DNA of 32,000 nt from the NCBI GenBank assembly GCA_031254335.1, contig JAIRUP010000005.1, positions 1 through 32,000 on the forward strand. Direction: 5' to 3'. Each line of letters starts with the position of its first letter. The stretch's first letter is position 1. Source of the stretch: Rickettsiales bacterium (GTDB taxonomy: Bacteria > Pseudomonadota > Alphaproteobacteria > Rs-D84). Below the pieces are notes generated by a model that made no database searches, was not told where the DNA came from, and was given only the letters and a program-made list of their open reading frames with translations. Of the stretch, positions 1,162 through 27,069 are shown piece by piece. Position numbers and translations under genes: made by a program.

Positions 1162-1938
1162 TCATTTCGTATCCCCCACGGCTTCGACGATTTCGGTGGC
1201 AAGACGCAAATACGCCTGCGACCCCGGCGACTGGAAATCGTAGAACAATGCCGGCTGTCCATAGCTTGGTGCTTCGGACAGTTTGACCGAACGCGGGATA
1301 ATGGTCTTGAACACCTTGTCGCCGAAGACTCCTCGGACATCGTCCTCGATAAGTTTGGAAAGGTTGTTCCGCTTGTCATACATGGTAAGGACGACGCCAA
1401 GGATATTAAGCTCGGGGTTCCATTTGTCCTTGATTTTGGATATGGCGTTCATAAGGTGCTGGATTCCTTCCAAAGCGAAGAATTCGCATTGAAGGGGAAC
1501 CAGAAGGTCGGTCGTGGCCGACAGGGCGTTTAGCGTCAAAAAGCCGAGGGCAGGGGGGCAATCGAGCAGGATATAGTCGTAATGCCCGGCTATCTCCGCC
1601 AGGGCCTCTTTCAGGCGGTATTCGCGCCGGTCCATATCAAGAAGCTCGACCTCGGCCCCGGCCAGCTCCGCGCTGGACGGCAGTATATGAAGGTTGTCCA
1701 CGGCGGTGGATAGGATGTTTTTCCCAATGGGGGCATACCCCATAAGGACATTGTAGACCGATTCCTTATGGTTGGCGCGATTGAATCCCAGGCCGGTTCC
1801 GGCGTTTCCCTGGGGGTCCAAATCGACTATTAAAACGCGTTTTTTGATTGCGGCAAGGCTGGCGCCGATATTGATTGCGGTGGTGGTTTTTCCAACCCCG
1901 CCCTTCTGGTTTGCAAATGAAATTATCCGTGTGGTCAT
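1162..1938 (-). CDS. parA: ParA/Soj chromosome partitioning ATPase
   Basis: MTTRIISFANQKGGVGKTTT carries the deviant Walker A motif. I chose the ATG at 1938 with a GAGGGAAG SD. The longer track ORF (to 2043) runs through repeat H2. Confidence 0.93.
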   Translation of the reverse strand: MTTRIISFANQKGGVGKTTTAINIGASLAAIKKRVLIVDLDPQGNAGTGLGFNRANHKESVYNVLMGYAPIGKNILSTAVDNLHILPSSAELAGAEVELLDMDRREYRLKEALAEIAGHYDYILLDCPPALGFLTLNALSATTDLLVPLQCEFFALEGIQHLMNAISKIKDKWNPELNILGVVLTMYDKRNNLSKLIEDDVRGVFGDKVFKTIIPRSVKLSEAPSYGQPALFYDFQSPGSQAYLRLATEIVEAVGDTK

Positions 1939-1947
1939 CTTCCCTCT

Positions 1948-1989
1948 ATTGTCATTCTCGGGCTTGACCCGAGAATCCAGGTAATAAAC
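1948..1989 (+). repeat. H-hairpin repeat copy H2
   Basis: ATTGTCAT-TCTCGGG-CTTGA-CCCGAGA-ATCCAGGTAATAAAC. It has the same flanks and loop as H4 (rc 22121-22157), but the stem is TCTCGGG/CCCGAGA instead of GGTCGGG/CCCGACC. Confidence 0.65.
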
Positions 1990-2128
1990 TGTCGGCTTCG
2001 CCGACTCAACTTGAAGATACAAATTTCCCCGGCGTTCGGTCAAGAATAATATCCAAAACCCCGGTAGAAAAATTCCCCTCCAAGGGAGGGGTGGTGGCGA
2101 AGCCGACGGGGTGGGAATAAAATCCCGA

Positions 2129-2218: not shown

Positions 2219-3313
<1,095 letters not shown>

Positions 3314-3372: not shown

Positions 3373-3415
3373 CATTTCACATGAAATGGACAATAAGTGC
3401 TTGATTTTAGCTGAT
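3373..3415 (+). repeat. 43-nt module, copy 2, including parS-like site C (3373-3388), upstream of rsmG
   Basis: CATTTCACATGAAATG is a 7-2-7 palindrome and the exact reverse complement of site A. It is followed by GACAATAAGTGCTTGATTTTAGCTGAT and ends 13 nt before the rsmG ATG. Confidence 0.75.
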
Positions 3416-3428
3416 ACAGGAAAAAATA

Positions 3429-3986
3429 ATGAACAAGAAAGAGCTCTATTTGAAAATGGTGCGCGAAGCGTCCGCCCGGATGAATCTTGTGGCGAAATCG
3501 ACCCTGCCGGACTTGGAGAACCGTCATTGGGCCGATTCGGCGCAGCTTGCGGCATATATAGGGGCCGATTCGCTGGTTATGGATTTGGGCAGCGGCGCGG
3601 GCTTTCCGGCGGTCATCCTGGCGATTCTGGGATATAAGGTCGTCGCAATCGAAAGCATAGGAAAAAAGGCCGCCTTTCTGTCCGAGGTAAAATCCCGTTT
3701 GGAATTGGATAATCTGACCGTTTGGAACGACCGAATCGAAAACAAGATGAAAGAAATCCAAGGGAAAAACAATATTGTGTTCGTCGCCCGGGCCTTTGCA
3801 AGTTTGGATAAGATTCTGGACCTGACCGGGCGCGTCCCGGGCGCGCGCTGGGTCCTTCTGAAAGGCCGAACCGCCGAAGACGAAATAAAGGCCGCCAAAA
3901 AACGCTTTTCATTCGATTATAAAACGACGAAATCTTCGTCCGGGGATGGATTTGTCCTCGAAATAAATACCGTAAAAACTAAATAA
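3429..3986 (+). CDS. rsmG: 16S rRNA m7G527 methyltransferase RsmG (GidB)
   Basis: 185 aa. MDLGSGAGFPAVILAI is a SAM-binding motif, and RHWADS and ARAFASL are RsmG-like blocks. Confidence 0.85.
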   Translation: MNKKELYLKMVREASARMNLVAKSTLPDLENRHWADSAQLAAYIGADSLVMDLGSGAGFPAVILAILGYKVVAIESIGKKAAFLSEVKSRLELDNLTVWNDRIENKMKEIQGKNNIVFVARAFASLDKILDLTGRVPGARWVLLKGRTAEDEIKAAKKRFSFDYKTTKSSSGDGFVLEINTVKTK

Positions 3987-4104
3987 ATCTCCCAAAATTA
4001 GCCAATATATACTAGTGATAGTTGATAACATTTTATTATTCTAACAAATGTGCTAGGATTATAATCATAGGCAATTCAGTCTATGAAACAAAAGGGAAAA
4101 CACA

Positions 4105-4440
4105 ATGAATAACACGGAGCATAATTTCAACCGATTCGCGGACGCGGACGCGCTTTGGTTTTGGTTCGTCGCAAGCAAGCGCATAAAGACAGGCTTTATG
4201 GCGAGATACGCCGGCGGGGCGAACCGCCCGTGCGAAATCCTGGACATGGAGGTCTTGATGACAAGGCTGAACCTGTCGGGGAAATTGCCGAACGCGGCCT
4301 TGAATGTCCTGACGCGATACGGGTTCTTGCGGCGCGCGCCGAACAAAAACCTTCGGCACGAGGAAAAGGACGCGGCGGCTTGGGAAGGCGCGATGGAAAC
4401 CATAACGGCGGCGGCCAAAGCGAAAGGATGGTTGGAATGA
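4105..4440 (+). CDS. Hypothetical 111-aa protein on the islet; possible HTH, unverified
   Basis: The ORF has an AAGGGA SD and a perfect TATAAT at 4060-4065 upstream. I recognise no family. The C-terminal half (LSGKLPNAALNVLTRYGF) is HTH-like by eye only. Confidence 0.45.
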   Translation: MNNTEHNFNRFADADALWFWFVASKRIKTGFMARYAGGANRPCEILDMEVLMTRLNLSGKLPNAALNVLTRYGFLRRAPNKNLRHEEKDAAAWEGAMETITAAAKAKGWLE

Positions 4441-4479
4441 TAAAAGTAAGAAGGATGAAGGCAGAGGGAAGAAGGGTTG

Positions 4480-4649
4480 ATAATTATATAAGTCCCGAAA
4501 AATCCAGGCGCAATCGCGTTTTCGAGGACAGATTGTTCAATGCGAAGGAAAACCGCCGCGCGTCTAGGCTGACCGCCTGCGAAGGCGGTTTTCCAAGCAA
4601 GTGGACAATATGGACCGAAAACGAAAAATTGCGCCAAGGATTTTTTGAC
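4480..4649 (+). repeat. E-repeat copy E6 (degenerate; boundaries approximate)
   Basis: The interior aligns with E1. Stems: GCGCAAT...CGTTTTCG / CGAAAACG...ATTGCGC and GGAAAACCGCC/GGCGGTTTTCC, with an apical AGGC-TGACC-GCCT and GCGAAGG. The termini are eroded (ATAATTATATAAG ... GGATTTTTTGAC). Confidence 0.55.
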
Positions 4650-4884
4650 TGTTCGTATTTGATTGGATTCACTCCGAATACAAGGCGCAGACTCGTCCGG
4701 GTTTTTTGTAGAAAATACCGGCATTGCGCGGTTGTTGACTTGGAGAACATGATTCTAATCCAAATCGGAATCGACGGGGTCCGTCTGGTCCGAATAGACG
4801 CGGGCGGGCTGGGCAGGCTTGCCGCGCATGGCTGGGTGTTCGTCTTGGCGAAACCGCGCCGCAGCCCGAAGGGCGGAGGCGGGG

Positions 4885-4908
4885 CGCAGTTCAATATATT
4901 GAACTGCG
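4885..4908. promoter_or_regulatory. 24-bp perfect palindrome, candidate operator or recombination site
   Basis: CGCAGTTCAATA|TATTGAACTGCG has exact 12-bp arms. It lies about 90-140 bp upstream of the two panA-proximal promoters. Confidence 0.4.
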
Positions 4909-4972
4909 TCGGCTTCGCGAAGCGGTGCCTGGGAATCCGCAACCCGTTTATCCTGACGCCGCTGGACTTGTA

Positions 4973-5001
4973 TAGACATCTAGTAAAAAATATGATATAA
5001 T
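4973..5001 (+). promoter_or_regulatory. Sigma70-type promoter P1 with extended -10
   Basis: TAGACA, 17 nt, TGaTATAAT. The TG is at 4993-4994 and the TATAAT at 4996-5001. Confidence 0.55.
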
Positions 5002-5021
5002 CAGAAAAAGGAGAGGGGTTC

Positions 5022-5050
5022 TTGACTTGCAAAAGAACTATTCCTATAAT
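5022..5050 (+). promoter_or_regulatory. Near-consensus sigma70 promoter P2 for the Panacea/toxin operon
   Basis: TTGACT (5022-5027), a 17-nt spacer, then TATAAT (5045-5050). It ends 19 nt before the ATG at 5069. Confidence 0.65.
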
Positions 5051-5068
5051 CGGGTCAGGTAATAAGAA

Positions 5069-5620
5069 ATGTCGATAAGATTCAATACAAACACTCGCAA
5101 AGCCCTTGAAGCTATAATATACTTGGCCAATAAAAAAGCCGATATGACGCAGTATTACTTTATGAAAATGATATTTTTCGCGGAAAAATATCATATAAAC
5201 AAATACGGAATTCCAATCATAGGCGACAGATATATAAAAATGGACAATGGTCCTGTCCCGTCCTTTGTGCTCGACGCAATCCGCCTTGACGGAGCTAAAC
5301 TTACGCACGATATATACGAGGAAATAAACAAGTCTTTGGATTTCAGGAAGGATTCAAAAAAAATCCACACTTCGGCAAAGCGCAAGCCGGACCTGTCTTT
5401 TCTATCGTCCACAAACTTGGAATGCCTGGACAAGGCGTTCAATTTATGCAAGGCCAAATCATTTGATGAATTAAAAAATCTTACGCACGAGGAAACCGCT
5501 TGGAAAAAAGCCGTTCGCAACAGGGATATGGACTACGCGTTGTTCGTTGACGACAACCATCCTGACAAAGAAATCATCGTGGCGGACCTATCGGACAACT
5601 TCGGCACATTGGTTCTGTGA
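5069..5620 (+). CDS. Panacea-domain (DUF4065, SocA/GepA-like) putative antitoxin
   Basis: 183 aa. YFMKMIFFAEKYHINKYGIPIIGDRYIKMDNGPVPSFVLDAI fits my recollection of the DUF4065 core (K-hh-Y-a-..-G.P.. then GPV.P.V). The gene is AT-rich relative to its neighbours. Confidence 0.7.
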   Translation: MSIRFNTNTRKALEAIIYLANKKADMTQYYFMKMIFFAEKYHINKYGIPIIGDRYIKMDNGPVPSFVLDAIRLDGAKLTHDIYEEINKSLDFRKDSKKIHTSAKRKPDLSFLSSTNLECLDKAFNLCKAKSFDELKNLTHEETAWKKAVRNRDMDYALFVDDNHPDKEIIVADLSDNFGTLVL

Positions 5621-5621
5621 T

Positions 5622-6002
5622 ATGCTGTTTAAGACCGGGCGTATTTACCATTTCACGCCCTGTCGGGCTTCCAATCCTGAAAAGAACAAATATGCGATAT
5701 GTGTTTCTGGGAAAAATAACTGGTTTTTCCTTATAAATTCATGTTCTGATACGCCCCCTGTAAGGCCCTATAAGCACGAGACTGATAGGGTGGCTTATCT
5801 AAACAAATTTCAAGTTCAACCTTTAAGCAAACGCTCTTATGTTAATATTTCGATGCTGAAAACCATATACGACTCCGATTATGATTCTTGCAAAGAATAT
5901 GATAAGGTCAGCAATATGGTATGGCTGGATATAAAACAGCTTTGTATTAAGATACTTCCGGCCCAGTCCAGCGAAGTAATATCGGCTGAAAAAGTAGTCT
6001 AA
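5622..6002 (+). CDS. Candidate toxin partner (126 aa); distant MazF/PemK-like pattern, unverified
   Basis: The ATG lies 1 nt after the upstream TGA (TGAtATG). It is in frame within track ORF 5547-6002. GRIYHF..(11)..KYAICVS...WFFLINS...LSKRSYVNISMLKTI...KVSNMVWLDIKQL parallels MazF GDLIWVDF..RPAVVLS...CVPCTT...ADQVKSI...TVAPEELQLIK by eye. Confidence 0.5.
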   Translation: MLFKTGRIYHFTPCRASNPEKNKYAICVSGKNNWFFLINSCSDTPPVRPYKHETDRVAYLNKFQVQPLSKRSYVNISMLKTIYDSDYDSCKEYDKVSNMVWLDIKQLCIKILPAQSSEVISAEKVV

Positions 6003-6165
6003 TAAGCTCAAAAAATATTAGTCAAATCGCAATTTCGAGAATAAAACGCCCAATACCAAGGGAAGGCGACCCAAGTCTGGACATAAGCGTCCGCGAGGGT
6101 CGCCTTCCCGAAGCGTAGTGGGGGTTTTAGGCCGAAATTGAAATATTTGACTTATATTTTTTGTC
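6001..6165 (+). repeat. E-repeat copy E2
   Basis: AATAAGCTCAAAAAATATTAG...TTGACTTATATTTTTTGTC. Stems: TAGTCAAAT/ATTTGACTA, CAATTTCG/CGAAATTG and GGGAAGGCGACCC/GGGTCGCCTTCCC, with an apical GGAC-ATAAGC-GTCC. The left end overlaps the toxin stop codon (6000-6002). Confidence 0.85.
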
Positions 6166-6180
6166 GTATAGTATAACGCG

Positions 6181-7962
6181 ATGAAACATTACGATGTCGT
6201 TATTATAGGCGGGGGGCATGCGGGGGCCGAGGCGGCCGCCGCGGCAAGCCGGCGCGGCGCAAAGGTCGCCCTGATAACCAAATCCCCAGGCGACATCGGC
6301 GCCATGTCGTGCAATCCCTCCATCGGGGGCCTTGGCAAATCCCAGCTTATTGCCGAAATCGATTCCCTTGGCGGCATTATGGGAGCGGCTGCCGACGCAA
6401 GCGGCATTCAGTTCAGAATCCTTAACGCCTCGCACGGGGCGGCGACCCAAGCATTGCGCGCGCAAATCGACAGGCCCCGGTATGCCCGCGCCGTCCTGTC
6501 CGCGCTGGATGGAATCGACATTATTTACGGCGATGTCGCCGGGCTGGATTTGGAAGGGAGAATAGTTGAAGTAATAAATCAGCTCCCCCCATGCGGGGGA
6601 GCCGGCGAGGAACGAGCCGGCGGGGGGTCGAATGCTGAATTCAACCCCCCGCCTGTTCGCGTTCCGCTCACAGACTCCCCCGCAAGGGGGGAGTTGGTTA
6701 AGGCGAAGGCCATTGTAATAAGTGCCGGAACCTTTATGAACGGACTTACCCACATGGGGGCGGACAAAAAACCGTCGGGCCGCATAATGGACAACCTTGA
6801 ATATCAGGACAATGACAAAACCTTGTCCCCGGTTTTGCGGGCCGCGGGATTCGAACTTAAAAGACTTAAAACCGGGACCCCGGCAAGGCTGTTCCGGGAC
6901 TCGATTGACTTCCGGGGCCTGGCCGCCCAGCCGTTGGAACCTTGCGAAGGGGCGCGCTTTTCGAATACGGCAACCCAGCCCAGGGCGGCGAGCGTCGCCA
7001 CCTGTCATATCACCCATACGACCGAAAAAACCGCCGGCATTATCCGCGAAAACATCGGGAAAGCCCCAATGTTCAGCGGCGAAATCGAGGGTATCGGCCC
7101 CCGTTATTGCCCGTCCATCGAGGACAAAATCATGCGCTTCCCGGAGCACCTTTCGCACCATGTCTTCTTGGAGCCGGACGATTTGGAAGGGAGCCTTGTT
7201 TATCCAAACGGCATATCGACTTCGTTCGGGGCCGACATCCAAGACAAGTGGCTTCGGACCATTCCGGGTTTGGAGAATGTCCGCGTCGCCAGATACGGCT
7301 ATGCCGTGGAATACGACGCCATAGACGCGCGGGAACTAAAAACCACCCTGGAATCGAAAAGGATTCCGGGGCTGTTCTTCGCGGGGCAGGTGAACGGCAC
7401 TTCGGGATACGAGGAGGCCGCCGCCCAGGGCCTGGTCGCCGGGGCCAATGCCGCCGCTTTCGCTATTGGCGCGAAGCCCTTGGTCTTGGACCGCGCCAAT
7501 TCCTTTATAGGGGTTTTGATAGACGATATTACGACGCTGGGCGTGGACGAGCCCTACCGGATGTTTTCGTCCCGTTCCGAATACCGCCTGACGCTGCGCT
7601 GCGACAATGCGGTCCAAAGGCTTTGGGGAATTGCGAAGGAATTGGGGCTGCTGACGGCGAAGCAGGGCGAAACGCTTGAAAAAAACATGCCGGGAATCGT
7701 AAAAAAGACAGCTGAAATTGACAAACTGTATTTTGGTTATGTTGGCAAACAATACCAAGACATCGAGAAAATGCGTCAAAATCTGTCGCTGAAAGTGCCA
7801 GTGGCGTTCGATTACATGGATTTGCCCGGCCTGACCCTTGAACTTAGGCAAAAGCTGAACAGGGCGCGCCCGGAGAATATTCATGCTTTGTCCCGAATCC
7901 AGGGCATGACCCCGGCGGGCGTTTTGGTCGTGTTGAGGAAGGTTAAAAGATGCGGTTCATAG
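6181..7962 (+). CDS. mnmG: tRNA U34 5-carboxymethylaminomethyl modification enzyme MnmG (GidA), carrying an internal insertion
   Basis: 593 aa. [16 protein letters not shown] is the FAD-binding motif. [20 protein letters not shown] and [19 protein letters not shown] are MnmG signature blocks. Confidence 0.95.
6580..6696 (+). repeat. 117-bp GC-rich nested palindromic element inserted in frame in mnmG
   Basis: The termini CAGCTCCCCCC and GGGGGGAGTTG are inverted repeats. There are three local hairpins: GCTCCCCC-CATGC-GGGGGAGC, GGCGGGGGG-N17-CCCCCCGCC and ACTCCCCC-GCAAG-GGGGGAGT. The element starts on a codon boundary and encodes [39 protein letters not shown]. Confidence 0.8.
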
Positions 7963-10900: not shown

Positions 10901-10976
10901 AATCGCCCCCTTGGCTCTTATACCCCAATTATAACCCAAAATGGACGAAATTCAAGGAAAACCGCCGAAAATATTA

Positions 10977-11222
10977 AATAAACTCAAAAAATATTAGAAA
11001 ATCAGAGCCGATAGGAAATCGTCCGATGCGCAGGAAAGCCTCGGCCCGAGTCTGGCCTTATATGGCCGCGAGGGTGAGGGCGGAACCAGAAAACATGCCG
11101 GGTGGCATGTTTTCCCGCCCGAGCAGAATCCCCGAATCTTTGATTCGGTGGATTCGTTGAAGTTTTCCAAGCAAGCGGGCGATTTATTGCGGCGATTGTT
11201 TTATTTGCTTATATTTTTTGTC
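10977..11222 (+). repeat. E-repeat copy E3 (expanded, 246 bp)
   Basis: It has canonical ends (AATAAACTCAAAAAATATTAG ... GCTTATATTTTTTGTC) and the core GTCTGGCC-TTATAT-GGCCGCGAGGG. About 80 extra bp include the hairpins AAAACATGCC-GGGT-GGCATGTTTT (11090-11113) and CCGAATC-TTTG-ATTCGG. Confidence 0.75.
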
Positions 11223-11304
11223 CTTGCTTTTTCAGAAATTTCGGTAATAATCAGCCATCCCCATGGGCGAGGCATTGCCCCAAGGAAACTCAAAAGGATA
11301 AAAC

Positions 11305-17133: not shown

Positions 17134-17142
17134 TTAATAAAT

Positions 17143-17306
17143 AATAAACTCAAAAAATATAAGCAACGCCGCAAATTCGATGAATAATCGTCCGATACCA
17201 AGGGAAGGCGGCCCGAATGTGGACTTGCCGTCCCTGAGGCGTCGCCTGACCGCCGGTAGCGGACGATTAGGCGCGAATTTGAAAATCGTTGCTTATATTT
17301 TTTGTC
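17143..17306 (+). repeat. E-repeat copy E4
   Basis: AATAAACTCAAAAAATATAAG...GTTGCTTATATTTTTTGTC. Stems: TAAGCAACG/CGTTGCTTA, CAAATTCG/CGAATTTG and AATCGTCCG/CGGACGATT, with an apical GGAC-TTGCC-GTCC. It ends 1 nt from the argS stop codon. Confidence 0.85.
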
Positions 17307-17307
17307 T

Positions 17308-18981
17308 TTACATCTCGCTTGGGATTTGCATGCCGAGCAAGTCAATTGCGACGGTCAGGACGCGGAGGGAAATTGCGACCACCGCCTTCCTGTGCGGGTC
17401 GTCCGACTTCAATATCGGATAATTGTGGTAGTAATTGTTGACGGCCTGCGCCAAGTCATAGGCGTAATTCGCAAGCAGCTCGGTCTGGTATGTTTCCGCC
17501 GCCTTTGACACCGTCCTGTCGAAATCGTTCAGCATCATAATCAGGGCGCGTTCTCCCGCTCCGTCTATTTTGTCCCCGAATTCGCATTTGCTGAAATCCT
17601 CCCCGGCCTTGGCCTGGATTGCAAGAAGGCGCACCGCCGTATAAAGCACCCCCGCGCCGGTCCTTCCCTCGAAGCTGGTTAGCACGGCCGGCTCGAACAC
17701 ATAATTGTCCATCATTCCGTGCGCCAAATCATTGAATTTAAGCGCGGATACGGCGATTTTGCGCATATCCCCCGCCGAAATATCCTTTCCGCTCTCCTGG
17801 ACGCGTTTTTGGACTGCCTGGACGGTCATTTCCACTATCCCCCGGATGGACGGCGTGCCGCCGTCCCTGGTCTTGAAGGGCTTGCCGTCAGAACCGTTCA
17901 CGGTTCCATAGCCCAAATGCGTTAATTTCGCGTCTGAAAGCCCGGCGCGCCGCGCGACGGCGAACAACTGTTTGAAATGAAGGTTCTGCCTGAAATCGGT
18001 TATATAAAGCAGTTCGTCGGGCTTGTCGTCCCGGCTCCGATAGTAAATCGCGCCCAAATCCGTCGCGGCGTATGTGTCCGTCCCGTGCGATGTCTTGAAG
18101 AGAAGCGGCGGGGTGTTTTCGTCTATGCGGACTATTTCCGCGCCCTGGTCCTTTTCCAAAAGGTTTTTCACTCGAAGGATTTTTTCGACATCGGACACGA
18201 AGCCGGACGCGTATTTTTCCCCCTGCCATTTGTCGAACGGTATGACATTCATGCCTTCTATGATTTCCCGGGCGTCCTTCATGGTTATATTCCGGAACCA
18301 TTCGTAGATTTTGGAATATTCGGGATTGCCGCTTTGGAAAAGGGCGGTTATCTTTTGGGCGCGAGCGTTCCAGTCGGGGTCGGCTTTGGACAGCTCGGAC
18401 GCCTCGGGATAAAACTTGTTCAGCTCGTCCGCGGTAAGCGCGTCCGGCATTCCGTTCGGATATTTTTCCATAAGAATCGCTATGACCTTTCCCATCGGCA
18501 GGCCCCAGTCGCCGAGATGGTTGTAGGCGACCGTCTTATGTCCGGCCGCGCGGAGGATTCGGTTTAAGACATCGCCGACGATTAAGGCGCGAAGGTTTCC
18601 CATGTGCGCGCTTTTGGCGATATTGAAGCTGGCGTAATCCATGTCGATTTTTTTGGGCGCGGCGGCTTGGGTGATTTCGTCCGCGCGGCGCGCGGCGTCC
18701 AGCAAAAATTTATCGGTTAAAACGATATTCACGAATCCGGGCTTGGCGATTGACGCGGAGCTTACCTCGGGCATGAGGGTAAGTTCGATTGCGAGTTCCG
18801 CCGCCAAGTCCATGGGATTCGTCCCGAGGGTTTTCGCGGCCGTCATGGCGATATTGGTGGCGTAATCGCCGAAATCGGGATTTTTGGCGGCCTCGAACGC
18901 GATTTTTTGGACGATTTCGGCGGGGTATTTGCAAAGCAGAACTTTTTTCGCCGATTCCGATAAGACAAATGGGATGTTCAT
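17308..18981 (-). CDS. argS: Arginine--tRNA ligase
   Basis: 557 aa. It has an HIGH-type motif (AKSAHMGNLR), an anticodon-binding C-terminus ending in M, and the typical ArgRS blocks DFGDYATN and ITDFRQ..HF. Confidence 0.93.
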   Translation of the reverse strand: MNIPFVLSESAKKVLLCKYPAEIVQKIAFEAAKNPDFGDYATNIAMTAAKTLGTNPMDLAAELAIELTLMPEVSSASIAKPGFVNIVLTDKFLLDAARRADEITQAAAPKKIDMDYASFNIAKSAHMGNLRALIVGDVLNRILRAAGHKTVAYNHLGDWGLPMGKVIAILMEKYPNGMPDALTADELNKFYPEASELSKADPDWNARAQKITALFQSGNPEYSKIYEWFRNITMKDAREIIEGMNVIPFDKWQGEKYASGFVSDVEKILRVKNLLEKDQGAEIVRIDENTPPLLFKTSHGTDTYAATDLGAIYYRSRDDKPDELLYITDFRQNLHFKQLFAVARRAGLSDAKLTHLGYGTVNGSDGKPFKTRDGGTPSIRGIVEMTVQAVQKRVQESGKDISAGDMRKIAVSALKFNDLAHGMMDNYVFEPAVLTSFEGRTGAGVLYTAVRLLAIQAKAGEDFSKCEFGDKIDGAGERALIMMLNDFDRTVSKAAETYQTELLANYAYDLAQAVNNYYHNYPILKSDDPHRKAVVAISLRVLTVAIDLLGMQIPSEM

Positions 18982-22157: not shown

Positions 22158-22169
22158 TTAATTGATATT

Positions 22170-22334
22170 AATAAACTCAAAAAATATTAGGCCAATCGCA
22201 ATTTCGAGGATAGATTTTCGAGAAACAAGAAAACCCGGCCGCCGTCTGGACATCGGCGTCCGCGGCGCGTCGGGTTTTCGCAGTTAATCGGAAATATAGA
22301 CCGAAATTGAAATATTGGCCTTATATTTTTTGTC
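22170..22334 (+). repeat. E-repeat copy E5
   Basis: AATAAACTCAAAAAATATTAG...TTGGCCTTATATTTTTTGTC. Stems: TAGGCCAAT/ATTGGCCTA, CAATTTCG/CGAAATTG and GAAAACCCG/CGGGTTTTC, with an apical GGAC-ATCGGC-GTCC. The right end overlaps the stop codon at 22333-22335. Confidence 0.85.
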
Positions 22335-22914
22335 ATTTGCAATTCGACATATAGTCGAAATAGTCGAAGCCGTCGATGTGGCGGTTGCGCAAATCGGCTT
22401 CCATCTCCATCTCGCGCAGGACTATTTGCAGTTCCGGCGAAAGTTCTATTTGCATCGCCATATCGTCCACCGCGTCGCCGGACAGGGGCGCGTGCGGGAC
22501 GGTTTTCGCCGCCGCCGTCAAGGCCTTTTCCAGTTTGTCCTTGAAATCGAACAGTATGGATTGATAGGTTTCGACATGGTCGCTTTCATGCCCCAGGACC
22601 GCGTCCCATTCGCAGGAACCCTTCCTGAACCGCTTGTCGATTCTGATAAGGAAATCGTATTTGATTTCGGCGGCGACGGCGGTCAGGACGACGCATTCCG
22701 CGTTCTGCCCGGTTTCCAGGGTCAGTTTCTTTTGGAATGTCGCAATGACTTCCCCGTATCTGTTGGGTATGGCCTCCGAATTCTTTATTTCCGTTTTGGA
22801 ATCGGGGATTGATACCGAAACCGAAACGGGTCCCTTCGAGCAGAAAGTGCGCTTGGCCTCCGCCGGAATAACATTCATTATCGCAAACAAAATCATAATT
22901 ATTCTAACAATCAT
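22333..22914 (-). CDS. Secreted hypothetical protein with HExxH motif (possibly DUF922-like Zn protease)
   Basis: 193 aa. The N-terminal signal-like segment is MIVRIIMILFAIMNVIPAEA. CEWDAVLGHESDHV contains HESDH. The layout (Cys..W..HExxH) recalls DUF922/COG5661, from memory only. Confidence 0.5.
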   Translation of the reverse strand: MIVRIIMILFAIMNVIPAEAKRTFCSKGPVSVSVSIPDSKTEIKNSEAIPNRYGEVIATFQKKLTLETGQNAECVVLTAVAAEIKYDFLIRIDKRFRKGSCEWDAVLGHESDHVETYQSILFDFKDKLEKALTAAAKTVPHAPLSGDAVDDMAMQIELSPELQIVLREMEMEADLRNRHIDGFDYFDYMSNCK

Positions 22915-22967: not shown

Positions 22968-23020
22968 AATAAATAGGCTCGAAAATTTTTAACGAAATAT
23001 TGAGGTTAAAATTTTTGTCA
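22967..23020 (+). repeat. Possible minimal or decayed E-repeat (termini only)
   Basis: AATAAATAGGCTCGAAAATTTTTAAC-GAAATATTGAG-GTTAAAATTTTTGTCA has E-like ends around a short AT-rich hairpin. The terminal TCA is the virB4 stop codon, the same geometry as E5. Confidence 0.3.
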
Positions 23021-25423
23021 GCTTGATTGTTTAAGGTATTCCCAAACAAAATTGCTTCCCTGCGATTTGTATATTTCTTCGGCGAGCAGGACGCTTTTGC
23101 GGCCGCTCTCGAAAAGCCTGAGATATGGCCCAAGGCCGCCGAGTTCCGTATTGAGCACCACCGATTCGTTTGTAATCGGCCTGCGCAGCAGAACCGCCCT
23201 TTTAAGGTTGGGATAGAGCTTCCCTTGTATGAACGCCATCTCCATGGGGCTTAGCCGCCAATTCTCGTAATCCGAGGCGTCCGCCGCCGGATTCCTGAAA
23301 AAGAGAATCGTCTGCGCCTGGCCGCGCACGACATCGCCTATGCCCAGCTTGTCCAGAATATTCGCGCGCTGGAAGGCCGCCATATAGGCCTGCCTGTTTT
23401 TCCGCCCCTCGGAAAGGCCCGTTATGAAATTCTTGCGGAACTGTTCGTTTTCAAGCATGGGCGCGGTTTCGTCTATCATAATCAAACTTGGATTGCCGCC
23501 CGCAAGCGTTATATTGTTGATTCTTTGGAGCAGATAGCTGAGGACGCCGGGGGACAGGGCCGGGTCGTCTATGATATTCGTGAAATCGAATGTGGTGAGG
23601 CGCGAATGCAGGTCTATGCTGTCCTTCCCCTCGTTGAATATGGTTCCGTATTGGTTGTCGTCTATCCATCTTTTCATATTCGCGCGGACGGTTCCCGCGG
23701 ACGAAAAGCACGACGGGACGATGTTTTTAAGCTTCCTGTCGCGGGCGGCGAGATAATCGAAATTCACCGCGACCGCGTTCGATATTTCCTCCAAGCTGGC
23801 GGCGTCCGTCTGACCCGATAAAATGGACATCCACCGTTTAAGGAAATCCCTGTCGGCGTCCGTCCCGTCCATCATAAGGGGGTTCATTTTGCTTTCTATT
23901 CCGATGTCGATTTTGTCGGCGTTCTGCGACCTGTTCTCGAATGTAAGGTATTTTCCGCCGACCGAAAGCGTGAATATTTCCGCCCCGCGGTTCCTGTCGA
24001 AGAAGAACGACTTCAATTTCGGATGCCGCATGGACTGCGATATTAAAAACGAGAAAAGCGTGGTTTTACCCTGGCCCGTGGGTCCGATTACTATGCTGTG
24101 CGCGGCGGCCGCCTGGCCCTGGGACACATGGAATTGGAATTTATAGGGCGTTCCCTCTGCCGTAGGGAATACCGCGATGGGGCCCTGTCCCCAGTCGGAA
24201 TTGTCGAAGCCGCCCGGGACCAGTGCGCATGGAACCGACGCCGCGGCCGCGCTTGAAAGCAATTTATAGCTGCGCGGGAAATCGTCGAAGCCGGGCGTCA
24301 TGGAAAAGAACGCGGGTTTGAGGCCGAAGTTTTCGACCGCGCTTGTAATCCCGAAATTGGCGCATATTTTTTGGAATTCGGCTATGGCGGCCAAGAGTTC
24401 GGACGAACTGTCGGCGCGAAGCATGAAAAGGGGATAATAATCGAATAGATTCTGGGAGCCGGCCGCGTCCTCGTCCATCATGCCGAGCGTTTCCTCGATT
24501 TGTTCGGACACCGTGTTGAAGCTTCGTTCGTTGTCGCTTGAAATCTGCTTTTTATTGAAATGGCTTTCGGCCGCGCGCCGCGACATCGGAATCATTCCGT
24601 TCATGACGACGATTTCCGATTGAAGGGATGAAAGCGATGTGAAGAACTCCTCGTCCATCCAGTCGGGCGCGGTCCTGAAACTGAGGCAGGCCGCGTATTT
24701 CACCCTGTCGCCTGATGAATATTCCAAATGCCCGCCCTGGAACGACACATCGTTCGTCGCGGCCAAATCCGAAAAATTCCCCTGGCTTAGATTTATCCTG
24801 GATTCGGACAGCGGCGACAGGATTTTGGAATAGAACGAGGCGGCGTTGTCCGCCGAATCGTGCTTCAATACGGACACTCCGTATGGGGCGAACACGGACT
24901 CGAACGAATTGGACGCCGCGGACAAATTTTCCATATTTCCGGCAGAAATCACGAGATAATAGCTGTTTTTATAGAGTTTAAGGCCCTGGTTGTTCCATTG
25001 GTCGTGTATGTCCTGCAATATCCTCTCGTCGAACTCGAAATCCGTCCTGGCATAATCCCGCGAGCGCGCCATGAAAAACCTGAGGACCGTGTCCCCGCCC
25101 TGCATCTGCTGCAAAAAGCGGGTGCGTATGTCAAGGAATTGCCTTTGCTTCTCGGGCTCCGTCATATTCGTTTGGATTCCCGATATGGCATACACCCTGA
25201 ATATTCTGCCGTTTTCGAGCAAAACCGTCGTTTTGTCGTCGAGCGGATACTTGAACGGAAGGTATTCCGCATACGACTTGTATCCGAACTTCGGGAACGC
25301 TATTTTTCCGAGAAGCCCCAGATAAATCAGAAACACTATGAAGATTCCGAACGCGGCGGCGGCCATGAGCGCGGCGGTCATGAACGAGCTGTCCTTGGTG
25401 AAGATTATTTCCAACGCTTCCAT
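23018..25423 (-). CDS. virB4: Type IV secretion system ATPase VirB4
   Basis: 801 aa with an N-terminal TM segment. The Walker A is GPTGQGKTT and the Walker B region is PSLIMIDETAPML. It is translationally coupled to virB3 (TGATG overlap). Confidence 0.9.
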   Translation of the reverse strand: MEALEIIFTKDSSFMTAALMAAAAFGIFIVFLIYLGLLGKIAFPKFGYKSYAEYLPFKYPLDDKTTVLLENGRIFRVYAISGIQTNMTEPEKQRQFLDIRTRFLQQMQGGDTVLRFFMARSRDYARTDFEFDERILQDIHDQWNNQGLKLYKNSYYLVISAGNMENLSAASNSFESVFAPYGVSVLKHDSADNAASFYSKILSPLSESRINLSQGNFSDLAATNDVSFQGGHLEYSSGDRVKYAACLSFRTAPDWMDEEFFTSLSSLQSEIVVMNGMIPMSRRAAESHFNKKQISSDNERSFNTVSEQIEETLGMMDEDAAGSQNLFDYYPLFMLRADSSSELLAAIAEFQKICANFGITSAVENFGLKPAFFSMTPGFDDFPRSYKLLSSAAAASVPCALVPGGFDNSDWGQGPIAVFPTAEGTPYKFQFHVSQGQAAAAHSIVIGPTGQGKTTLFSFLISQSMRHPKLKSFFFDRNRGAEIFTLSVGGKYLTFENRSQNADKIDIGIESKMNPLMMDGTDADRDFLKRWMSILSGQTDAASLEEISNAVAVNFDYLAARDRKLKNIVPSCFSSAGTVRANMKRWIDDNQYGTIFNEGKDSIDLHSRLTTFDFTNIIDDPALSPGVLSYLLQRINNITLAGGNPSLIMIDETAPMLENEQFRKNFITGLSEGRKNRQAYMAAFQRANILDKLGIGDVVRGQAQTILFFRNPAADASDYENWRLSPMEMAFIQGKLYPNLKRAVLLRRPITNESVVLNTELGGLGPYLRLFESGRKSVLLAEEIYKSQGSNFVWEYLKQSS

Positions 25424-25701
25424 CAGCTTATAAGGTTCCGGGGGATTTTCATTCTGATTATTTTAAGGTTCGCGGATATTATTCGGCCCATTTGCGGCTC
25501 TTTGCTTGAAATCCGGGCGATTGTATAGTGGGACGCCATGAACGGGACGAGAAAATAGAGCGGGTTTGCGTTTCCTTGGAATACGACCAAAAAAACTATG
25601 AATAATATGAAAAAAACCGCGAAATTCAACATGGCGAGTCCATAAGGCGCGCCAAGGATTCTAAGCGGATTCGTTATTGCTTTTTGGATTGCTATTTTCA
25701 T
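25423..25701 (-). CDS. virB3: Type IV secretion system protein VirB3
   Basis: 92 aa. NPLRILGAPYGLAMLNF is followed by a hydrophobic hairpin, as in the VirB3 family. It lies directly upstream of virB4. Confidence 0.75.
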   Translation of the reverse strand: MKIAIQKAITNPLRILGAPYGLAMLNFAVFFILFIVFLVVFQGNANPLYFLVPFMASHYTIARISSKEPQMGRIISANLKIIRMKIPRNLIS

Positions 25702-25720
25702 CTCTCTTTCCCTGTCCTAA

Positions 25721-25750
25721 ATTATAACATATTCAGCTTGTTATTAACAA
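25721..25750 (-). promoter_or_regulatory. Candidate virB3-virB4 promoter with extended -10
   Basis: The minus strand reads TTGTTA (25750-25745), an 18-nt spacer, then TGtTATAAT (the TATAAT is the rc of 25721-25726). It lies about 20 nt upstream of the virB3 ATG region. Confidence 0.5.
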
Positions 25751-25763
25751 GGCTTAATAAGCC
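25737..25763. promoter_or_regulatory. Two abutting perfect palindromes overlapping the -35 (operator-like)
   Basis: CTTGTTA-T-TAACAAG (25737-25751) and GGCTTA-A-TAAGCC (25751-25763). Confidence 0.4.
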
Positions 25764-25950
25764 ATCGTTGAAACTTGTTTATAAGTTGTTTGTGGTGTTT
25801 GGTGATAATTTATACGCATGATTATTAATAACTTAAAATATTAAGTAAAATCAATATGATTTATTGTTTATAACTTTATGAATTGATTTGGAATTTTATT
25901 TTTAACGGAATTAATAGGATAAATAAAAACAATAAAAAAATCTAAGGGAA

Positions 25951-25974
25951 TTAAAAAATCCCCTTTCGGGGATT
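25951..25974 (-). terminator. Rho-independent terminator of rpmJ
   Basis: The minus strand reads AATCCCC-GAAA-GGGGATT followed by TTTTAATT. It starts 3 nt after the rpmJ stop codon. Confidence 0.6.
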
Positions 25975-25976
25975 CT

Positions 25977-26111
25977 TTATTTTTTCTTATAGCCTTGCTT
26001 GGCCTTGAACTTGGGGTTCTTTGGGTCCAAAAGAAGTACCTGCTTGCCGCGGCGGACCAGTTTAAGGTTTCCGCGTTTCTTCCAGCCTTTGAGGGAGCTT
26101 AGGATTTTCAT
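25977..26111 (-). CDS. rpmJ: 50S ribosomal protein L36 (non-zinc, YkgO-like type)
   Basis: It is below the ORF-track size cut-off. My translation is MKILSSLKGWKKRGNLKLVRRGKQVLLLDPKNPKFKAKQGYKKK (44 aa). This matches the MK..SLK...VRR.G......NP.FKA.QG pattern. A GAGG SD precedes it. Confidence 0.8.
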   Translation of the reverse strand: MKILSSLKGWKKRGNLKLVRRGKQVLLLDPKNPKFKAKQGYKKK

Positions 26112-26158
26112 GATATGCCTCGGTTTCTAAATTTATGAAAGTTTATAATACTTATCCC

Positions 26159-26186
26159 TTGAAAAATCAATAAAAAAAAGTATAAA
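26159..26186 (+). promoter_or_regulatory. Candidate promoter of the mreC-mreD-mrdA-rodA operon
   Basis: TTGAAA (26159-26164), a 16-nt spacer, then TATAAA (26181-26186). It ends 26 nt before the mreC ATG. Confidence 0.5.
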
Positions 26187-26211
26187 TAGATAAACTAAGA
26201 GAAAAGTTATC

Positions 26212-27069
26212 ATGAAATTCTTGAATTTATTCTCACAACTTGGAGTTTTGCTGAAAATCCTCAAAAAATCGGCGATTTATATAATCGCGCCCGTATTTTT
26301 CATTTATATTCTGCTTGATAAGCCCGATTACGCCGTCTTGAACGCCATTCATAAGCCAATCATGGCGGTGGCGCTGCCTTTCGGCCAGATGCTCACATGG
26401 CCGGTCCGCGCGGTCAAAGGCTTTGGAGCTTCTGTTATAGAATACAATTATCTGGCCGAGGACAACGAGAAGCTGCGGAAGACATTGGATGAAAAAATCA
26501 CAATCGAGAACGAGTATAAGTTCCTTAAATCCGAAAACGAGAGGATGGTCGGGCTTCTGAAAATAAAGGAGGAGTCGAAAACGAATGTCATTATAGGGAA
26601 GGTAATCGGCAACAACAACGGCCTTGGCAATACATTCGTGATAAATGTCGGTTCGAACGACGGCGTCAGGGACGGCGAGGTTGTTTTAAGCCATCTTGGA
26701 AACCTTTTGGGCTTTGTCATATCGTCGACGGGCGAATATTCGAAGGTTAGGAATCTGAACGATATAAATTCCAATATAATAGTCCGGGTCGCGGGAACCG
26801 AAGTTTTTGGATTCTTGCAGGGCAACAATGGAAAAAGCCCGTATTTCGAGTATTATTCGGACCCGGACTTCGAGCCCGCGCCCGGAATGCAGCTTGTGAC
26901 CAGCAATATGAACAGCCTTATGCCGTCGAATATTCCAATCGGCGAAATATCGAAGATTTATTCCAAGTCGCGCTCGCAGGTCAGGCTTTACGACGCGTCC
27001 GAAAAGGTTATGTCAATCCGCGTCCTTGAATACGATTTCAGGGAGAAATACAAGGAGGTCTCGGATTGA
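26212..27069 (+). CDS. mreC: Rod-shape-determining protein MreC
   Basis: 285 aa with an N-terminal TM segment. It has a coiled-coil LAEDNEKLRKTL...ENERMVGLL followed by beta-barrel blocks (VINVGSNDGVRDGEVVL). It is the first gene of the mreCD-mrdA-rodA order. Confidence 0.8.
   Translation: MKFLNLFSQLGVLLKILKKSAIYIIAPVFFIYILLDKPDYAVLNAIHKPIMAVALPFGQMLTWPVRAVKGFGASVIEYNYLAEDNEKLRKTLDEKITIENEYKFLKSENERMVGLLKIKEESKTNVIIGKVIGNNNGLGNTFVINVGSNDGVRDGEVVLSHLGNLLGFVISSTGEYSKVRNLNDINSNIIVRVAGTEVFGFLQGNNGKSPYFEYYSDPDFEPAPGMQLVTSNMNSLMPSNIPIGEISKIYSKSRSQVRLYDASEKVMSIRVLEYDFREKYKEVSD

Follow-up and report, generated by a model that had tools for sequence, protein, structure and literature searches.

Here we describe a two-gene locus, panA–panT, at positions 5069–6002 of a 32,000-nucleotide stretch of DNA from a Rickettsiales bacterium, an alphaproteobacterium of the gut (contig JAIRUP010000005.1, positions 1 to 32,000), which is called the window below. 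The first gene, panA (5069–5620, plus strand, ATG start), encodes a 183-amino-acid (aa) protein with a Panacea domain, and the second, panT (5622–6002, plus strand, ATG start), encodes a 126-aa protein with a predicted MazF-like fold. We suggest that the pair is probably a horizontally acquired PanA–PanT module of type II, in which a MazF-fold endoribonuclease toxin would be neutralised by direct binding of PanA.

The cassette lies between rsmG/gidB (3429–3986; Pfam GidB, E 3.6e-37) and mnmG/gidA (6181–7962; Pfam GIDA, E 2.6e-132). At the junction ...CTGTGAtATG the stop codon of panA and the start codon of panT are separated by 1 nucleotide (nt). The GC content of panA and panT together is 0.405 vs 0.532 for the window, 0.505 for rsmG and 0.575 for mnmG, and ranks 19th lowest among 622 windows of equal size. 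Hence, coordinates, junction sequence and composition all bear out a preliminary description of this DNA, made from the sequence alone, which had delimited open reading frames (ORFs) of 183 and 126 aa coupled through TGAtATG and more AT-rich than the flanking core genes. The mobile unit has a length of about 1 kb and consists of the promoter, panA and panT. Both genes are real and evolve under purifying selection, as it follows from the ratio of nonsynonymous to synonymous substitution rates between two Ca. Enterousia copies (dN/dS 0.07 for panA and 0.13 for panT).

The second gene is under-annotated. The NCBI PGAP annotation is limited to a C-terminal fragment of 49 aa (MDR0319392.1, ‘Rickettsiales bacterium’ metagenome-assembled genome, MAG), and the Logan gene call on another assembly of the same organism (L020, 1179–1559) omits panT entirely; the IMG gene call corresponds to the full 126-aa PanT. 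An alternative TTG start at 5547, which would give a product of 151 aa, was rejected, as every homologue begins at the Met equivalent to 5622.

PanA, the PanT family and their pairing

PanA matches the Pfam family PF13274 (SocA_Panacea/DUF4065), named after SocA, with E 3.7e-21 and 76.6 bits at a cut-off (gathering score) of 25.7 bits. The match extends over residues 32–146 and profile positions 2–113 of 113, which confirms the DUF4065/Panacea core assigned to the 183-aa product in the preliminary description. PHROG 1281 is matched as well (E 6e-21). No additional N-terminal domain is detected, so PanA is a standalone Panacea protein. Its C-terminal tail of 37 residues, ending ADLSDNFGTLVL, is nearly invariant among the close orthologues. 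The PanA orthologues with 65–74% identity adjoin homologues of the toxin.

For PanT, no match is found in Pfam, NCBIfam, PADLOC or PHROGs, and the product stays as unassigned to these families as it had been on first inspection. A word-indexed search of 5.8 billion proteins returns 5 relatives with 53–69% identity, and an exhaustive hidden Markov model search of 1.84 billion representatives returns 13 hits, two of which are long multi-stretch proteins (P0014 and P0016). P0016, a cadherin-like repeat protein matching the ‘GQAYSFTPTASDPDGN’ motif, was judged to be a spurious relative. With a profile of 15 sequences the total rises to 46 clusters, none of which carries a Pfam domain or a descriptive name (only the JGI label ‘hypothetical protein’) and none of which can be linked to a named RefSeq genus. 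All 49 members of the family give only scattered noise against Pfam at E ≤ 10, and tblastn against plasmid and phage records is empty. As judged from these sequence searches, the PanT family is very rare, with some 46 clusters in 5.8 billion proteins, and absent from curated libraries. The sole residues invariant across its 49 members are K23, N39, S40, L68 and S72. The cysteines C14 and C27 are near-invariant and have no counterpart in MazF.

The genomic loci were read for five close relatives, for P0010, P0017, P0033, P0044, P0047 and P0053 (the most distant), for two Ca. Enterousia MAGs and for an IMG/VR phage contig. In each of the 12 family branches examined, the gene immediately before the toxin homologue encodes a Panacea protein, with toxin identities from 69% down to ~20%. 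Between the stop of the Panacea gene and the start of the toxin gene there are −1 to +6 nt in 12 loci and 22 nt at the most distant one, that of P0053. The identity of PanA to the protein of the window falls from 68% to 26% as that of the toxin falls from ~64% to ~20%; this indicates that the two genes are co-inherited, travelling and diverging together. The downstream ORF is thus a conserved partner in other genomes too, where the preliminary description had the coupling at this one locus to go by.

The flanks of the cassette differ at each locus and include mutS/truB, IS1595 with P63C, lexA, a HEPN/nucleotidyltransferase pair, a terminase, an integrase, rpsF/rplI, a GmrSD-HNH endonuclease and phage tail sheath/tape measure genes. 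The phage copy (L021, 3457–4381, IMG/VR UViG_3300045988_178632; also L022) encodes a PanA of 180 aa and a toxin that is 38% identical to PanT of the window. It is placed within a myovirus-type tail module; on one side it is flanked by the sheath, a structural (tube-like) protein and a small ORF, and on the other by the tape measure, which is a classic moron position. In a Ca. Enterousia MAG (L018, 4412–5611, minus strand) the cassette adjoins a restriction-type endonuclease with GmrSD_N + HNH; the copy of L011 is close to the HEPN/nucleotidyltransferase pair, and that of L006 to IS1595, P63C and a PLD/SNF2 helicase. These neighbours suggest that the cassette resides in defence or mobile islands.

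Predicted fold of PanT and its relation to MazF

The fold of PanT was predicted with AlphaFold. On six sequences the model has a mean predicted local distance difference test score (pLDDT) of 66, and Foldseek already ranks MazF structures first for it; ToxN (2xd0) and AbiQ (4glk) are among its weaker hits and CcdB is weaker still (3tcj_B, E 1.3). With the alignment of 49 sequences (AF2) the pLDDT is 94.6 and the predicted template modelling (TM) score, pTM, is 0.88. The strand order is the same as in the six-sequence model, and two helices are present at the C-terminus. In the search of this model against the PDB the best 50 hits are all MazF, with E from 7.4e-5 to 5e-3, TM scores of 0.51–0.74 and root-mean-square deviations (rmsd) of 2.8–6 Å. 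They include MazF-mt3 and MazF-mt1, as well as MazF of S. aureus, B. subtilis and E. coli. The match with the best E (7.4e-5) has TM scores of 0.65/0.71, and 9ikd_B has TMt 0.74 and rmsd 2.8. ToxN, AbiQ and CcdB are absent from these 50, and CcdB was discarded as the closest relative of PanT on this ground and on its E of 1.3 with the first model. Among the viral structures of BFVD, the top 12 hits are, bar one unnamed, PemK-like or endoribonuclease.

The models thus support an SH3-like β-barrel with a C-terminal helix, i.e. the MazF/CcdB fold, and place PanT in this structural superfamily. The resemblance of the 126-aa product to the MazF/PemK barrel, which had previously been judged by eye, hence stands at the level of the fold, since the Foldseek comparison proposed at that time, run on the AlphaFold model, yields MazF in 50 of the 50 top PDB matches. 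It does not stand as membership of the sequence family PF02452.

At the level of residues, the extended hhalign alignment of PanT with MazF is collinear over ~105 columns and the independent local alignments of hmmsearch share its register; both are statistically weak. Attempts to deepen the MazF profile by database search gave only near-identical Bacillus NdoA proteins. In these weak alignments K23 is paired with R29 of E. coli MazF, I38-N39-S40 with C51-T52-T53, and the ‘HDSYI’ stretch of PanT with ‘RDGVAL’ of E. coli MazF (RDSVIL in B. subtilis). In the MazF/Kid alignment R29 and T52 do not vary, and their B. subtilis equivalents Arg25 and Thr48 are reported to be essential and widely conserved (PMC10893535). 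The residue correspondences are of low confidence and good to about one position, because the hhalign probability is only 5–7%. It is plausible but unproven that K23 occupies the site of the catalytic Arg and N39-S40 that of the catalytic Thr.

Promoter-like sites, repeats and other features of the window

Around the two genes the following elements are found.

4973–5001, plus strand: promoter-like site P1, TAGACA-17-TATAAT with a TG extended −10 element, agreeing with 11 of the 12 sigma-70 consensus positions
5022–5050, plus strand: promoter-like site P2, TTGACT-17-TATAAT, agreeing with 11 of the 12 sigma-70 consensus positions and ending 19 nt 5′ of the panA ATG
6000–6168, no strand assigned: dispersed palindromic intergenic element (‘E-repeat’), which fills the panT–mnmG spacer and begins at the TAA stop of panT (6000)

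The region holds 8 promoter-like sites vs 3.5 ± 2.0 in shuffled sequences. The extended −10 of P1 (TGnTAtAAT) is kept upstream of panA in four homologous loci (L001, L002, L017 and L018), and the P2 pattern CTTGAC...TAtAAT is kept in two of them (L001 and L002). P1 and P2 are thus putative promoters by their sequence, and the near-consensus promoters of the preliminary description correspond to these two sites. We also note a 6-bp inverted repeat, GTTCTT-N9-AAGAAC, at 5018–5038, with a central TTGCAA palindrome, which straddles the −35 box of P2; it is a possible operator, so short that chance could explain it. A perfect 22-bp palindrome, GCAGTTCAATATATTGAACTGC, is found at 4886–4907 in a spacer of normal GC content, ~65 nt upstream of P1, within an unsupported 74-aa minus-strand ORF (4755–4979) that has no Pfam match. 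A protein may bind at this palindrome. The interval from rsmG to the cassette also contains a 111-aa ORF (4105–4440, plus strand) with a host-like GC content at third codon positions of 0.75 and no match in Pfam, NCBIfam or PHROGs.

The palindromic element is ~170 nt long, with the ends CTCAAAAAATATnAG...CTTATATTTTTTGTC, and occurs in six copies in 32 kb; besides the copy next to panT these are 999–1160, 4494–4648, 17142–17310 and 22169–22337 and a longer one at 10976–11225. The 6000–6170 copy folds into a single 171-nt hairpin (−81 kcal/mol, z −11.9), and comparison of five copies reveals compensatory double changes in 29 of 61 stem pairs. In five of the six copies the ends come to within 7 nt of the stop codon of an adjacent ORF that is 90 aa or longer. 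The start of the copy exactly at TAA 6000 agrees with the capping of the gene pair by an E-repeat at its stop codon, as was noticed earlier. The right end of this copy carries a promoter-like TTGACT-16-TAGTAT (6147–6174) before mnmG. No canonical intrinsic terminator was found after panT, and the element has no match to an Rfam family. It recalls repeats of the REP, ERIC, RPE or MITE type, and it belongs to the host genome rather than to the cassette. A composite element between the repeats 4494–4648 and 6000–6168 was considered and found no support, as GC falls only from ~4975, the segment 4649–4972 is host-like in GC and such repeats occupy many intergenic spacers.

Several observations concern the rest of the window. 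Two 49-nt inverted repeats (2123–2171 and 3373–3421, 88% complementary) bracket a 1.2-kb segment with an mreB-like gene (2219–3268, minus strand, assigned by eye), which is wedged between parA (1162–2043, minus strand) and rsmG. These repeats could have been left by an inversion or insertion, or they could be regulatory regions that were duplicated. In MnmG the Pfam GIDA match is split in two by a Gly/Pro-rich insertion of ~35 residues (window ~6570–6685, residues ~130–168). At 23018–25701 (minus strand) and 25400–26300, an 801-aa ORF with the Walker A motif GPTGQGKT, together with a 92-aa membrane ORF, is by eye a candidate for VirB4/VirB3-type type IV secretion genes, and the stretch of lowest GC in the window (0.35) lies just beyond them.

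Proposed mechanism, alternatives and comparison with known systems

Combinations of PanA with toxins of cryptic MazF fold are already published and validated. Kurata et al. 2022 found that Panacea pairs with at least 88 toxin domains, including PemK (by CDD), and that some toxin clusters without a CDD hit resemble EndoA/PemK/MazF by HHpred (PMC8832971). Two of these systems, the PanATs of P. moraviensis and B. ruminantium, have cryptic MazF-like toxins validated as translation inhibitors that PanA neutralises (PMC8832971). According to Ernits et al. 2023, MazF/PemK is one of the folds that recur most often over sequence-distinct toxin–antitoxin (TA) nodes.

Hence, we suggest the following mechanism. 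One or several strong promoters of its own would drive a bicistronic panA–panT mRNA, from which panT would be translated by coupling to panA, as the 1-nt gap and its conservation indicate. PanT would most likely be a divergent member of the MazF/Kid/PemK superfamily, acting as a ribosome-independent, sequence-specific endoribonuclease that halts translation; arguments for this are its fold, its invariant residues and the behaviour of the two cryptic MazF-like PanTs that have been validated (PMC8832971). In such an enzyme, the invariant K23 would stand in for the catalytic Arg and the invariant N39-S40 pair for the catalytic Thr.

PanA would most likely bind PanT directly and so neutralise it, thus making a type II system, as the published PanA–toxin complexes and the neutralisation by standalone Panacea proteins suggest (PMC8832971, PMC10440598). 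The inhibitory contact might be made by the globular domain of PanA or by its conserved C-terminal tail. In biological terms the pair probably serves addiction and/or anti-phage or inter-phage competition, to which the phage-borne copy in a tail-gene module and the defence and mobile-element neighbours point; superinfection exclusion or abortive infection may also be suggested.

Several observations weigh against the assignment of PanT to the MazF endoribonucleases. PF02452 (PemK_toxin) matches 0 of the 49 PanT members even at E ≤ 10, and the PanT profile finds no MazF among PDB sequences, only chance hits (Rifin, MafA). The low hhalign probability was obtained against a thin profile of four MazF/Kid sequences. 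The G-x-E-Q-x-G-x-R-P loop of MazF is missing, Lys replaces its Arg, and Asn or Ser replaces its Thr. CcdB, a gyrase poison, has the same fold, and the fold alone therefore does not fix the target. Many predicted PanTs are, in addition, not toxic in E. coli (supplementary information of PMC8832971).

These points leave room for a TA pair whose MazF/CcdB-fold toxin is no ribonuclease and poisons another target, such as a translation factor or, in the manner of CcdB, DNA gyrase. The absence of a sequence-level MazF signal (in the PF02452 and PDB sequence profile searches), the non-conserved catalytic Arg, Thr and loop, and the appearance of CcdB among the weak hits of the first model would all fit with it. 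Nevertheless, we find it improbable, as the 50 best PDB hits of the high-confidence model are MazF ribonucleases with no CcdB among them, the viral hits are PemK-like, the invariant residues of PanT coincide with the active-site positions of MazF in the weak alignments described above, and both validated cryptic MazF-like PanTs inhibit translation. We give the same low weight to a conserved two-gene operon that is no TA system at all, in which the 126-aa protein would have a MazF fold without toxicity and serve the Panacea protein as a partner that binds RNA or DNA, or as a regulator. Of the predicted PanTs tested by Kurata et al., a substantial fraction is listed as ‘not toxic’ in E. coli (SI table, PMC8832971), and Ernits et al. 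propose that Panacea may chiefly be a sensor domain (PMC10440598), both of which would be in line with such an operon. However, the locus carries the hallmarks of TA systems, namely a mobile unit of minimal size (~1 kb) that has a promoter of its own, a patchy and very rare distribution, unrelated contexts that include phage, insertion sequence and defence genes, and the antitoxin-first order with tight coupling. The invariance of the putative active-site residues and the purifying selection also speak against a non-toxic partner.

The mode of neutralisation could differ as well, if PanA acted like SocA in a type VI system, i.e. as a proteolytic adaptor handing the toxin to ClpXP and not as a stoichiometric inhibitor. 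The Panacea domain of SocA, after which PF13274 is named, works in this way in Caulobacter (PMC8832971). Yet PanT does not resemble SocB, the PanAs that Kurata et al. tested form complexes with their toxins, which suggests direct neutralisation, a standalone Panacea protein is shown to neutralise directly (PMC10440598), and PanA and toxin co-vary over their whole length, as is predicted for a binding interface. We therefore regard an adaptor role as very unlikely for PanA. A type III, ToxIN-like reading was rejected: there is no tandem repeat array, as TRF gives only three trivial repeats of 16–29 nt in 4000–6400, and the element upstream of panT is a protein-coding gene.

A more far-reaching reading may also be considered, to which we attach a rather low, speculative weight. 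PanT could represent a distinct catalytic branch of the MazF/Kid/ToxN superfamily, characterised by Lys and Asn-Ser, a short β1–β2 loop and two near-invariant cysteines, partnered only with a single lineage of standalone Panacea proteins that co-evolves with it. It might then have a target RNA or a cleavage chemistry that is new, or an activity other than that of an RNase; the PanA tail might be a MazE-like groove binder, the Panacea domain might sense a phage cue, and the whole might be a phage-borne anti-phage module.

The closest known counterparts are the PanA–PanT systems of Kurata et al. with cryptic EndoA/PemK/MazF-like toxins (T5, T6 and T25; PMC8832971). They likewise have the standalone Panacea gene first and a coupled small toxin downstream, with no or weak domain matches in the toxin and a MazF-like structure, and they are mobile, patchy and also present in phages. 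The published clusters differ in that they reached an HHpred probability of 99.5% to EndoA, whereas the present family gives 5–7% in the thin hhalign test. As judged from names and tblastn, PanT appears to be a sequence family separate from the published PanTs: no source names a family hit for it, and tblastn on plasmids and phages is empty.

With MazEF and PemIK (Kis-Kid) the cassette shares the predicted toxin fold (TM up to 0.74) and the antitoxin-first operon; by the low-confidence alignment, basic and hydroxyl residues that are invariant in PanT may stand where these toxins have their catalytic Arg and Thr. Unlike in these systems, the toxin has no PF02452 match and at every locus examined is partnered by Panacea and not by an AbrB/RHH MazE/PemI. 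PanT also differs in its Lys and Asn-Ser in place of Arg and Thr, in the short β1–β2 loop that lacks GxEQxGxRP, in its two C-terminal helices and in the near-invariant C14 and C27. SocAB of Caulobacter (type VI) has an antitoxin with the same domain, PF13274, but PanT has no relation to SocB, and a standalone PanA would not be expected to work as an adaptor. ToxIN/AbiQ (type III) and CcdAB belong to the same broad structural superfamily as PanT; however, no tandem RNA-repeat antitoxin is found upstream of panT and their structural matches are far weaker than those of MazF.

The locus thus adds a rare, unannotated sequence family to the toxins that the hyperpromiscuous Panacea antitoxin would neutralise. 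It is one more MazF fold concealed below the level of sequence detectability, and it leaves the current picture of TA systems unchanged. We suggest that the strict pairing with PanA may make it a clean small system for the question of how a standalone Panacea protein neutralises a MazF-fold toxin, and that PanT is also suited to the question whether Lys/Ser can replace the Arg/Thr chemistry of MazF.

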